From Escherichia coli (GTDB lineage Bacteria; Pseudomonadota; Gammaproteobacteria; Enterobacterales; Enterobacteriaceae): a stretch of 64,000 nt of DNA. The stretch is from the NCBI RefSeq assembly GCF_003334765.1, contig NZ_QOWT01000006.1; one strand, given 5' to 3'. A program made the position numbers and the translations under genes. Positions 26,201-29,036 of the stretch are shown one piece after another. The notes below the pieces were generated by a model. That model was not told where the DNA came from. It worked only from the letters and a program-made list of their open reading frames with translations, and did no database searches. Within the stretch, counting starts at the first letter, position 1. Each line of letters starts with the position of its first letter.

Positions 26201-29036
26201 CGGCGTTATAAATAGTTATAACACCGCCCAATTGGTTAATTGCTGTTGCATTTTTCCCTGCACCACTATAACTATCAGTACCAACTCCCACACCTGTACC
26301 GAAGTCAATGGCGCTGTTGCTAGCTATATCTCGCATTGCGGTAGTGTCATTTGCATCTACCCACATAGAATCCAGTGTAATTTTACCCTGATTTTCTGCT
26401 GTTGAATCTGCTATAGCAAGCATGCCGACACTACCACGACCATACAAATCAATGATGCCGCTGTCAGTATTGATAATTGTGCTATTCGATTGAGCGACTA
26501 ACCCTGTTATGCTACTGACATCGTTATTAAAAATAAATGAATTCGATGTGCCCGTTGAATACTTGTTAAATACGCTATGTTGTTCCGTCACTTTACCTGT
26601 GATCGTACCTGCATTAGTGGCGCTCCCTCCGTTAGTAGCCAGTAAAACAATGGGAGACGGTGCCGGATCTTTACCATTTTGTAATAACGAGATCGTGCCA
26701 CTATTTATACCTGTTGTATTTTCACCAGTAACAAAAGCAAAACCTAAATTCTGAATTTCAACAGTACCTTTATTAACAATTTTCGCACCGGAATCAGCAT
26801 AAGTAAGTTCTGGGGTTCTTGTCCCATGATGTTCAAAACTGTCAATATCCTGCATTGTTAGCGTAGCGCCACTGCCAATTTCCAGCAAAGCTTTATCCTG
26901 TACCCGAATAACCCCGGCAAACCCCAGAGGGAATTCTCCGCTGATTGTCGTATCTCCATTCAGATATACCGACGACTCACCACTAACGACAATAACGCTG
27001 GTATAACTATATCCTGTGCGCAAGGAAGTAACCTGCGACCCATCTGCAAGCGCGTTTTTCTCTCCAATCAGTTCAAGTCCACCATTCATATTAACGGTAT
27101 TGCCATCGCCAATCACAACCAGACCTGACGTTTTCTCTGCGCTGCCATCAAATAAATTACTCTGACGAGAAGTAACCTCACTGTCTGATACAACAGTTAA
27201 CTTTCCATCCAGCGTCACGTTATTATCACTGCCGTAAACGTTGATACCCACGGATGGATCGAAGAAATATTCCGCCGCATTGTCTGCGGTTTTATCCTTA
27301 TCAACCAGAACGTTACCAGTGATATTCACTGTATTCGCATCGCCAGAAACGTTTATGCCCGTCGCTTTCTGCCCGACCACTTTTAGATCTTTTGCCGCCA
27401 GCGTCACGCTGTTATTGTTGCCATTAAGATCTACCCCGGTCGAGAAATCGCCAACCTGCATACTGCCTGCCAGCGAAACCTTCCCACTGTTGGTTGTGAT
27501 GCTGAACCCTGTCGCTTCATTGCTAACGTTAACATCACCCGTATTGGATACTGTTGCCCCCTCACCGTTGATGAGCACGCCAATCGATCCAGTATCGGAA
27601 ACAACAATATCTCCTTTGTTGTTAACCGTGCCGTTGTCACCAATGTTCTCAACACCATGCGCACCGCCTGTAACAGTCAGGCTACCATCCAGATTTACAA
27701 TGCCGATATTGCCCGCGATTTTGGTACCCGTGGAATCTTTTCCATCAACAGTGGTTTTTCCACTGTTATTCGCGGTGGCGTCGTTACCGTTGATCTGAGT
27801 GCCGGTGCCGCCATTGGTGATAGTGCTCTCGCCTTCGTTATTGACGATGGCCTGGTCGCCGTCAATCTGGATACCGATGGACTCCGGATCGGTGACGGTC
27901 ATGGTGCCCTTGTTATCCACCGTTGCGCTGTCGCCGGTGATATCAATACCGTGACCGCCGCCGCTGACATCCAGATCGCCGTCCTGAATAACTTTTCCGT
28001 TATTACCGTTGATTTCCGTACCGGTGGAATCCTTGCCGTCAACGGTGGTTTTGCCGTTGTTGTTTGCCGTGGCGTCATCACCATTAATCTGGGTGCCGGT
28101 GCCACCGTTGGTGATGGTGCTCTCGCCTTCGTTATTGACGATGGCCTTGTCACCGTCGATCTGGATACCCATGGACTCCGGATCGGTGACGGTCATGGTG
28201 CCCTTGTTATCCACCGTCGCGCTGTCACCGGTGATATCAATACCGTGACCGCCGCCGCTGACATCCAGATCGCCGTCCTGAATCACTTTCCCGTTATTAC
28301 CGTTGATTTCCGTACCGGTGGAATCTTTACCGTCAACGGTGGTTTTGCCATTGTTGTTTACTGTGGCATTATCACCCGTAATAACAAGCTCACCGTTGTG
28401 ATTATATTGCCACTTCGTTGCGCCATCTGCGCTCACCCCTTCAAGGGCAACAGTGTTATTCGCTTCATCAATCTGCCAAAGATTAATCGTTGCCTTACGA
28501 CCATTGCTATCTTGCAGAGATATAGTCCCGTCAGCATTCTCGGTATAAGTAAAAACTGAATCGCGAATAGTTAACGTTTTTTCTGTTTTATCGAGAATAA
28601 CGTCATTATTAAACGAAACCGGTTTGGGAGGTGTAGGCGTATCATCCGGATCGTCCGGTATTATCTCATCTCCGCCAGGAGTTGGGGGAACTGGAGTGTC
28701 GTCTGATTCATCATCAGGGGGTGTCGGTGGGAGTGGAGAATTGTTGCGATGATGATGATCATCATCGTCGTTTAGTTCCACTACGGCTAAGGCCGTGATT
28801 AACGCAGCAGCGCCTGTGGAAAGCCATGGCATCAGGTTTTGTTCGACTAAAGGAGAGCATTCAGAGGGTAAGCGTTTAAGCTCTTCCGGACTGAGTTTTC
28901 CTGGGTCTGCCGGACAAGTCACATTGGTATTTTTCTTTTCACCTGTGGTGGTTTCTACCTCTGTGATATCTGCCGCCCAACCCTGACCACTCAGAGCTAA
29001 TGCAATACAGGCCGACAATAGAGTTTTCCTTTGCAT
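23268..29036 (-). CDS. ydbA: Intact type V autotransporter YdbA (1922 aa): signal peptide, Pro/Asp-rich linker, long Gly/Thr/Asn-rich repetitive passenger, C-terminal beta-barrel
   Basis: Single uninterrupted ORF 23268..29036 (-), MQRKTLLSACIALALSGQGWA|ADITE…; ends …KGVMLNFKKTF (C-terminal Phe typical of outer-membrane beta-barrels). The K-12 reference copy is, to my recollection, split by IS2 and IS30; no IS sequence is present here. Confidence 0.93.
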   Translation of the reverse strand: MQRKTLLSACIALALSGQGWAADITEVETTTGEKKNTNVTCPADPGKLSPEELKRLPSECSPLVEQNLMPWLSTGAAALITALAVVELNDDDDHHHRNNSPLPPTPPDDESDDTPVPPTPGGDEIIPDDPDDTPTPPKPVSFNNDVILDKTEKTLTIRDSVFTYTENADGTISLQDSNGRKATINLWQIDEANNTVALEGVSADGATKWQYNHNGELVITGDNATVNNNGKTTVDGKDSTGTEINGNNGKVIQDGDLDVSGGGHGIDITGDSATVDNKGTMTVTDPESMGIQIDGDKAIVNNEGESTITNGGTGTQINGDDATANNNGKTTVDGKDSTGTEINGNNGKVIQDGDLDVSGGGHGIDITGDSATVDNKGTMTVTDPESIGIQIDGDQAIVNNEGESTITNGGTGTQINGNDATANNSGKTTVDGKDSTGTKIAGNIGIVNLDGSLTVTGGAHGVENIGDNGTVNNKGDIVVSDTGSIGVLINGEGATVSNTGDVNVSNEATGFSITTNSGKVSLAGSMQVGDFSTGVDLNGNNNSVTLAAKDLKVVGQKATGINVSGDANTVNITGNVLVDKDKTADNAAEYFFDPSVGINVYGSDNNVTLDGKLTVVSDSEVTSRQSNLFDGSAEKTSGLVVIGDGNTVNMNGGLELIGEKNALADGSQVTSLRTGYSYTSVIVVSGESSVYLNGDTTISGEFPLGFAGVIRVQDKALLEIGSGATLTMQDIDSFEHHGTRTPELTYADSGAKIVNKGTVEIQNLGFAFVTGENTTGINSGTISLLQNGKDPAPSPIVLLATNGGSATNAGTITGKVTEQHSVFNKYSTGTSNSFIFNNDVSSITGLVAQSNSTIINTDSGIIDLYGRGSVGMLAIADSTAENQGKITLDSMWVDANDTTAMRDIASNSAIDFGTGVGVGTDSYSGAGKNATAINQLGGVITIYNAGAGMAAYGASNTVINQGTINLEKNGNYDDSLAANTLVGMAVYEHGTAINDQTGVININVGTGQAFYNDGTGTIVNYGTICTFGVCQSGNEYNNTDDFTSLIYTGGDTITRSGETVTLNKSAAVTDKLAGNVVNSGTLSGDQITVSSGLLENTSGGIINNLVKLDKGAVIKNAGVMTNNVDVSGGILNNAGEMTAQITMNAGADSSLVNNTGTINKIVQNAGVFNNSGSVTGRMMSAGGVFNNQTDGAIMRGAALTGTAVANNEGTWNLGSSSEGNNTGMLEVNNNSAFNNRGEFILDNDKNAVHINQSGTLYNTGHMNISNSSHNGAVNMWGGNGRFINDGTIDVSAKSLVVSANNAGDQNAFFWNQDNGVINFDHDSASAVKVTHSNFIAQNDGIMNISGTGAVAMEGDKNAQLVNNGTINLGTAGTTDTGMIGMQLDANATADAVIENNGTINIFANDSFAFSVLGTVGHVVNNGTVVIADGVTGSGLIKQGDSINVEGMNGNNGNSSEVHYGDYTLPDVPKPNTVSVTSGSDEAGGSMNNLNGYVVGTNVNGSAGKLKVNNASMNGVEINTGFTAGTADTTVSFDNVVEGSNLTDADAITSTSVVWTAKGSTDASGNVDVTMSKNAYTDVATDASVNDIAKALDAGYTNNELFTSLNVGTTAELNSALKQVSGSQATTVFREARVLSNRFSMLADAAPKVGNGLAFNVVAKGDPRAELGNNTEYDMLALRKTIDLSESQTMSLEYGIARLDGDGAQKAGDNGVTGGYSQFFGLKHQMSFDNGMNWNNALRYDVHNLDSSRSIAFGNTNKTADTDVKQQYLEFRSEGAKTFEPSEGLKVTPYAGVKLRHTLEGGYQERNAGDFNLNMNSGSETAVDSIVGLKLDYAGKDGWSASATLEGGPNLSYAKSQRTASLAGAGSQHFNVDDGQKGGGINSLTSVGVKYSSKESSLNLDAYNWKEDGISDKGVMLNFKKTF
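27700..28430. repeat. Tandem direct repeat inside ydbA: two near-identical 294-bp units (27841..28134 and 28135..28428) plus a degenerate flanking copy
   Basis: Both units begin attgacgatggcc…; about 95% identical by eye; period 294 nt = 98 codons, in frame; encodes repeated …NNNGKTTVDGKDSTGTEINGNNGKVIQDGDLDVSGGGHGIDITGDSATVDNKGTMTVTDPES[M/I]GIQIDGD…. Confidence 0.9.

Follow-up and report, generated by a model that had tools for sequence, protein, structure and literature searches.

The 64,000-nucleotide (nt) stretch of Escherichia coli DNA analyzed here (RefSeq assembly GCF_003334765.1, contig NZ_QOWT01000006.1; called the window below) carries an intact open reading frame (ORF) at the ydbA locus, and within the part of this ORF that encodes the passenger of an autotransporter lies a tandem array with a period of 294 nt. 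Our data make it very probable that the repeat is an in-frame stalk module of the YdbA/UpaH autotransporter, built as a beta-helix, that whole units of it are lost and gained by misaligned pairing, and that the window holds a short but intact allele with two copies. The features of the locus are collected in Table 1.

The gene is a classical autotransporter of the ydbA locus. With pdxI and paaY as its neighbors, it is near-identical to the ydbA fragments of K-12, with 97.7 to 97.9% identity over the N-terminal fragment and 100% over the last 933 nt (MG1655). A preliminary description of this DNA, made from the sequence without database searches, had placed the repeats in the passenger of ydbA, and synteny, the identity of 97.7 to 100% to the K-12 fragments, and the barrel found by Pfam all bear this out. 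The array is located N-terminal to the PF03797 barrel; this C-terminal barrel and the beta-helical passenger in an AlphaFold2 model are the marks of a type Va autotransporter, and the presence of both PF25784 and PF25783 places the protein in the YdbA/UpaH/BigA family. Judged by eye from the translation, the N terminus follows the n-h-c pattern MQRK/TLLSACIALALSG/QGWA/AD that is typical of a Sec signal peptide. The allele is a common and annotated one: an identical protein of 1922 amino acids (aa) is found on 441 public contigs and equals the RefSeq coding sequence (CDS) in the complete genome SW070917, and the complete genome NMBU-W12E19 has the same protein, interrupted by an IS5-family element.

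Table 1. Features of the ydbA locus, in positions of the window
Feature	Coordinates	Strand	Evidence or remark
ORF, intact, 1922 aa, K-12-type allele of the ydbA (upaH-locus) classical autotransporter	23268..29036	-	ORF list, translation
Probable Sec signal peptide (MQRKTLLSACIALALSGQGWA/AD)	28971..29036	-	Read by eye from the translation
BigA_N domain (Pfam PF25784, aa 140-220)	28377..28619	-	E 8e-33; directly N-terminal to the array
Well-conserved 294-nt tandem array	27717..28376	.	Tandem Repeats Finder and lag-294 match map
Repeat unit 1 (aa 227-324; half-units A + B, 49 aa each)	28065..28358	-	Codon phase; no mismatch with K-12 unit 1
Repeat unit 2 (aa 325-422)	27771..28064	-	21 nt and 3 aa unlike unit 1; K-12 units 2 (5′ part) and 3 (3′ part) joined exactly
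Crossover interval of the one-unit deletion	27867..27989	-	K-12 units 2 and 3 match without a difference over this 123-nt tract
Degenerate third unit (aa 423-520)	27477..27770	-	54% identical to unit 1 in aa; same as K-12 unit 4
BigA_beta sandwich domain (Pfam PF25783, aa 1491-1574)	24315..24566	-	E 3.3e-25
Autotransporter beta-domain (Pfam PF03797, aa 1696-1892), outer-membrane barrel	23361..23951	-	E 1.1e-18
pdxI (ydbC)	22200..23060		Flanks the ORF
paaY	29367..29957		Flanks the ORF

Over positions 24000..34000, Tandem Repeats Finder returned a single array with a period of 294, 2.2 copies, 90% matches, and no indels (score of 1082), and identity at a lag of 294 peaked at 0.93 over a background of 0.22 to 0.31. 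Because the lag identity never exceeded 0.37 when the region was shuffled 20 times, the periodicity is far above chance. A general repeat search gave only a pair with 71% identity in another register, and the array is better described by Tandem Repeats Finder together with the lag profile. The 294-nt periodicity proposed beforehand is thereby confirmed, as is the unit length of exactly 98 residues, but the unit boundaries have to be corrected: the two units had been placed at 27841..28134 and 28135..28428 with about 95% identity, which is about 70 nt off. With those boundaries identity is only 81.6%, because the second unit overruns the end of the repeat by about 50 nt; the register of highest identity compares 27772..28065 with 28066..28359 (274/294, 93.2%). 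In codon phase, 21 nt distinguish unit 1 from unit 2; 19 of these are third positions of codons, and the codon changes (17 synonymous and 3 nonsynonymous) alter 3 of the 98 residues. A more diverged upstream copy had also been noted, and it was recovered as a degenerate third unit whose identity to the conserved unit is about 59% in nt and 54% in aa; it is upstream on the plus strand and downstream with respect to the minus-strand gene.

Each 98-aa unit is made up of two related half-units of 49 aa, A and B. UpaH-type alleles add a third half-unit, "C," which reads as a chimera of A and B and gives rise to super-units of 147 aa. An AlphaFold2 model of aa 137 to 620 (mean predicted local distance difference test score [pLDDT] of 93.4; predicted template modeling score [pTM] of 0.89) has an all-beta N-terminal domain, BigA_N, followed by a regular solenoid with three strands per rung, in which the long strand of each rung begins every 24 or 25 residues. 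In this model, a unit of 98 aa is predicted to form four rungs of a beta-helix and, with the canonical rise of 4.8 Å per rung, would lengthen the stalk by about 1.9 nm. The nearest structures in the PDB according to Foldseek were beta-helices as well (Ag43, TibA, pertactin, tailspikes, and lyases), all with weak matches, and a sequence search of the PDB with aa 133 to 700 gave no match.

Copy number is polymorphic in E. coli. By direct inspection, the number of conserved units per allele is 1 in 2022H048, 2 in the window, 3 in K-12, 7 in SEC470, and 12 in SK1402, and the array of Nissle 1917 amounts to about 12 unit-equivalents. A BLAST search of 5426 complete E. coli genomes with one unit as the query, in which every tandem copy was counted as a separate place, matched 2410 genomes with 1 to 15 places per genome (median of 6). 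A spread sample of 60 of these genomes contained 3 genomes with one place, 2 with two, 26 with three (many K-12 laboratory strains among them), 4 with six, 5 with seven, 4 with eight, 2 with nine, 2 with ten, and 12 with twelve places. The picture was similar when an ST131-type unit served as the query, and about half of the genomes had no detectable unit or barrel-coding end at the search sensitivities used. The lengths of the proteins in public clusters are also spaced by 98 or 49 aa (1922/2020 and 1772/2017/2066/2360/2605), the latter ladder extending to 2845 aa, and intact three-copy versions of the K-12 type exist with 2020 aa. The preliminary description had suggested a comparison of ydbA alleles across genomes and would have been contradicted by one copy number in all strains; alleles with 1, 2, 3, 7, and 12 units exist, and K-12 has exactly one 294-nt unit more than the window. 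An apparent difference in copy number between NCM3722 and C600 was rejected as a reporting artifact; both share the same N-terminal fragment of 2526 nt.

Five of the length changes could be mapped to individual units. Window units 1 and 3 equal K-12 units 1 and 4 with 0 mismatches each, and window unit 2 begins as K-12 unit 2 and continues as K-12 unit 3, again with 0 mismatches. Since unit 2 is an exact chimera of two K-12 units, it arose by an in-register deletion of 294 base pairs (bp), and since the variants of K-12 unit 2 are found in neither window unit, the change was a loss from three copies to two. K-12 unit 1, in turn, equals unit 1 of SEC470 joined to unit 5 of SEC470 (1 mismatch), and K-12 units 2 to 4 are exactly SEC470 units 6 to 8. 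Although the SEC470 allele has five units more than the window allele, the two differ at only 1 of 5181 nt outside the array. ST131-type alleles carry 12, 11, 8, and 1 units. Compared to the 12-copy allele, AF4 has one unit fewer (0 of 4684 nt different in the flanks), the ST131 strain 5506 has 11 units fewer (1 of 4684 nt different), and NR1442 has 4 units fewer (26 sites different in the flanks); all three have a chimeric junction unit with zero mismatches and an intact ORF. Unit losses amid near-identical flanks indicate that copy number shifts faster than point substitutions build up.

All observed length changes are multiples of 3 nt, namely, of 294 nt, of 147 nt in UpaH-type alleles, and in one case of 87 nt. 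The view that length can change without loss of the frame, put forward in the preliminary description, agrees with the single full-length ORF seen in each of the variants examined. A phase-variable contingency locus that is switched on and off was considered and rejected for the same reason, all changes being in frame with the full-length ORF kept. What was found instead is a copy-number-variable in-frame adhesin: the unit of 294 nt is 3 × 98, and alleles with 2, 3, and 7 units have 0 to 1 mismatches in their flanks. The 87-nt change is an in-frame deletion in the array of NR1441, an ST131-type allele (gene at 2050..10566 in the NR1441 sequence), and is a multiple of neither 147 nor 294; hence, some length changes are out of register with the repeat.

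How does this gene relate to UpaH? In the B2 strains Nissle 1917 and SK1402, the gene at the ydbA locus encodes 2845 and 2867 aa, respectively, and is much longer than that of the window. Polymerase chain reaction (PCR) primers for upaH, designed on GenBank FJ719778.1 (PMC11658850), have an exact match inside the Nissle 1917 gene, and therefore, the locus encodes UpaH; in the window, they have no match within 3 mismatches. Among the papers searched, none named both UpaH and ydbA. Allsopp and coworkers reportedly described an intact upaH of 8.535 kb in CFT073 in 2010, a length that fits 2845 codons. The window protein has 62 to 69% aa identity to the B2 alleles, and its central passenger cannot be aligned to Nissle UpaH; at the nt level, alleles of the phylogroup A type and the B2 type are 80 to 87% identical. 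We therefore rejected the possibility that the window gene is UpaH sensu stricto, the CFT073/ST73 allele: the primer sites are absent, aa identity at the ends is 62 to 66%, and the center cannot be aligned. It is a diverged allele at the upaH locus and not the same protein. The window gene shares with UpaH of the uropathogenic E. coli CFT073 (Allsopp et al. 2010, 2012; GenBank FJ719778/ACX47353) the chromosomal locus adjoining pdxI and the architecture of signal peptide, BigA_N, array of 49-aa half-units, long beta-helix, BigA_beta, and autotransporter barrel, but it is a K-12-type allele with two A-B units, whereas Nissle UpaH has about 12 unit-equivalents and the A/B-chimeric C half-units that produce the 147-aa super-units.

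The ydbA pseudogene of K-12, which is split by IS2 and IS30, belongs to the same allele family as the window gene. The 5′ 678 nt are identical and, as described above, K-12 units 1 and 4 recur as window units 1 and 3; in K-12, however, the gene contains insertion sequences (IS) and three conserved units, whereas the window has two units and is intact. With BigA of Salmonella (NCBIfam NF033178), the protein shares BigA_N, BigA_beta, and the C-terminal region. Nevertheless, it is not a BigA equivalog, since NF033178 gave a score of only 1075.9 bits compared to the curated cutoff of 3400; four stretches were matched, and the best-scoring one spans only the C-terminal ~800 aa. Over the repeat region, BigA-like proteins have about 32% identity. 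The self-associating autotransporters of the AIDA-I type (Ag43, TibA, and AIDA-I) are also of type Va, with a three-faced beta-helix passenger of short repeats, and are the nearest solved folds, although the matches are weak (E ≥ 3.6e-4; template modeling score of ≤0.3). Their rungs have about 19 aa and are not known to form a 98-aa super-repeat, in contrast to the rungs of 24 to 25 aa in the window protein. With respect to copy number variation, the gene resembles those of repeat surface proteins such as the alpha C protein of group B streptococci and the SD-repeat proteins of staphylococci, in which long in-frame repeats form part of an exposed stalk and copy number shifts by misaligned recombination or slippage with the frame kept. 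These proteins have other folds and occur in other organisms; their unit is an independent domain or a disordered spacer, whereas the YdbA unit corresponds to four rungs of a continuous beta-helix in the predicted structure.

Because neighboring units are 90 to 95% identical, misaligned pairing between them can remove or add whole units with the reading frame kept. Such pairing may take place in unequal recombination between sister chromosomes or in template switching or slippage at replication, and it would produce stalks of stepwise different length among E. coli strains. In the lineage of the window, a seven-copy allele gave rise to a three-copy K-12-like allele and this to the two-copy allele, the last step being one in-register deletion. 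As far as can be read from the sequence, the junctions show homology-guided, in-register events, with tracts of identity of 123, 83, 134, 11, and 18 nt at the five mapped junctions. The preliminary description, whose observation was correct, if ordinary, and whose interpretation was essentially right in other respects, had assigned the length changes specifically to RecA. RecA needs at least about 25 nt for pairing, and the tracts of 83 to 134 nt at three of the five junctions are well above this minimum, as expected for unequal homologous recombination by RecA. At the other two junctions, the tracts have only 11 and 18 nt, and for one of these the parent units are only 73.5% identical, which argues against RecA as the sole route. 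Furthermore, RecA-independent deletion and expansion of tandem repeats of 101 and 787 bp is documented in E. coli (PMC7145654), and the pathways are indistinguishable by sequence alone. RecA-dependent recombination as the specific cause, rather than RecA-independent template switching or slippage, is therefore possible but doubtful.

Two further explanations were weighed. The array might be a static relic of an old duplication of rungs, and strains might differ because whole diverged alleles were imported by horizontal recombination. The alleles are indeed strongly diverged (80 to 87% nt identity between the A type and the B2 type; 62 to 69% aa identity to the B2 alleles, with a center that cannot be aligned to Nissle UpaH), and the units within an array differ synonymously at about a quarter of the codons and hence are old. 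However, alleles that are 1, 5, or 11 units apart have only 0 to 1 mismatches in 4.7 to 5.2 kb of flanking sequence, and the junction units are exact two-parent chimeras of the longer allele, which cannot result from the import of an allele. Chimeric junction units and near-identical flanks contradict the idea of a static relic, which we regard as highly improbable. Slightly less credible still is that the two copies of the window are the product of a longer array that was collapsed during assembly, although the locus is hard to assemble and an in-register chimeric unit would result from a collapse, too. The warning in the preliminary description that the region is prone to such trouble was justified. 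Celik et al. (2012, PMC3419190) report a misassembly of the CFT073 genome at upaH, and a search for homologs of the window protein returned mostly shortened proteins that end 60 to 170 aa into the array, with large clusters at 373 aa (772 members), 338 aa (826 members), and 313 aa (577 members). The gene of the 373-aa cluster runs to the end of the contig, and draft contigs that break off within the array number in the thousands. Against a collapse in the window speak the 441 contigs with the exact 1922-aa protein, its occurrence in the independently assembled complete genomes SW070917 and (interrupted by the IS5-family element) NMBU-W12E19, and the small size of the conserved array, which has only 662 nt. 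With 21 differences between its units and stretches of perfect identity no longer than 56 nt, the array can be resolved by ordinary paired reads.

Several observations weigh against gain and loss of units by misaligned pairing as we propose it. All five mapped events are deletions, and no clean recent expansion was found among the alleles compared. The differences within the array are mostly synonymous, and therefore, the units are old paralogs and not fresh duplicates. In SK1402, the nonadjacent units 3 and 5, 8 and 10, and 2 and 4 differ by only 5 to 10 nt, which hints at older duplications of two-unit blocks. Copy numbers were read from assembled sequence, and an assembler that collapses repeats also yields in-register chimeras, so that some of the public copy numbers could be artifacts; for the two-copy and three-copy alleles, which are present in hundreds of independent assemblies, this is unlikely. 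Furthermore, the counts across the species are BLAST places in two 60-genome samples with summary statistics and do not amount to a full census, and the link to UpaH rests on the primer match and on secondary sources.

The repeat, its in-frame variability, and the problems that it causes in assembly were already known for upaH. Variation of the UpaH passenger between strains has been published, and according to secondary sources, UpaH variants differ in biofilm formation. Repression of upaH by H-NS is also reported. UpaH/YdbA is a biofilm and colonization factor with a strain-variable passenger, and our results refine this known story by the four predicted rungs per unit, the ladder from 1 to about 15 units, and the deletions that were mapped to the base, even within ST131. 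They also illustrate that a length-variable adhesin repeat can be recognized from raw sequence alone. In practical terms, the array breaks short-read assemblies and confuses both typing and calls of the presence of upaH, and many copies in RefSeq are misnamed. Many ydbA/upaH copies there are called "EntS/YbdA MFS transporter," which looks like a confusion of ybdA with ydbA that was spread by automatic annotation.

It is imaginable that copy number is selected and not neutral, with a longer stalk allowing the tip to clear capsule or O-antigen, or with length varying an immunodominant surface, but we consider this rather unlikely. If true, selection on stalk length would explain why encapsulated B2 lineages (ST131 and ST73) have about 12 units and alleles of the phylogroup A type have 2 to 3. 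It would also explain the strong purifying selection on the units (17 synonymous versus 3 nonsynonymous changes) despite frequent deletions.

Some further features of the gene and its surroundings deserve mention. Between the signal peptide and BigA_N, at ~28620..28835 (aa 68 to 139), the protein has a second hydrophobic stretch (LMPWLSTGAAALITALAVVEL) and, after it, DDDDHHH and a linker rich in proline, an arrangement unusual for the N terminus of a classical autotransporter. IS elements are frequent at the locus: they are found inside the gene in K-12 (IS2 and IS30), NMBU-W12E19 (ISKpn26, of the IS5 family), and LR-50 (IS1) and directly beside it in SW070917 (IS4), SEC470 (IS1414), and ST131-5506 (IS1), whereas the copy in the window is intact. 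In the intergenic region between ydbA and paaY, a 66-nt CDS for a "hypothetical protein" (WP_010723099.1) is annotated in several genomes; transferred to the window, it would lie at ~29198..29263 on the plus strand, just upstream of the ydbA start and on the opposite strand. The whole paa operon follows the autotransporter gene in the window, whereas in three B2-type or related genomes the operon is gone, with at most a remnant of paaY, and the autotransporter gene abuts ydbL. Finally, a "phage tail tip protein" of 688 aa joins the phage tail domains PF09327 and PF12421 to a BigA_N domain that is 86% identical to that of the window gene; it may be a real fusion or derive from a chimeric contig.

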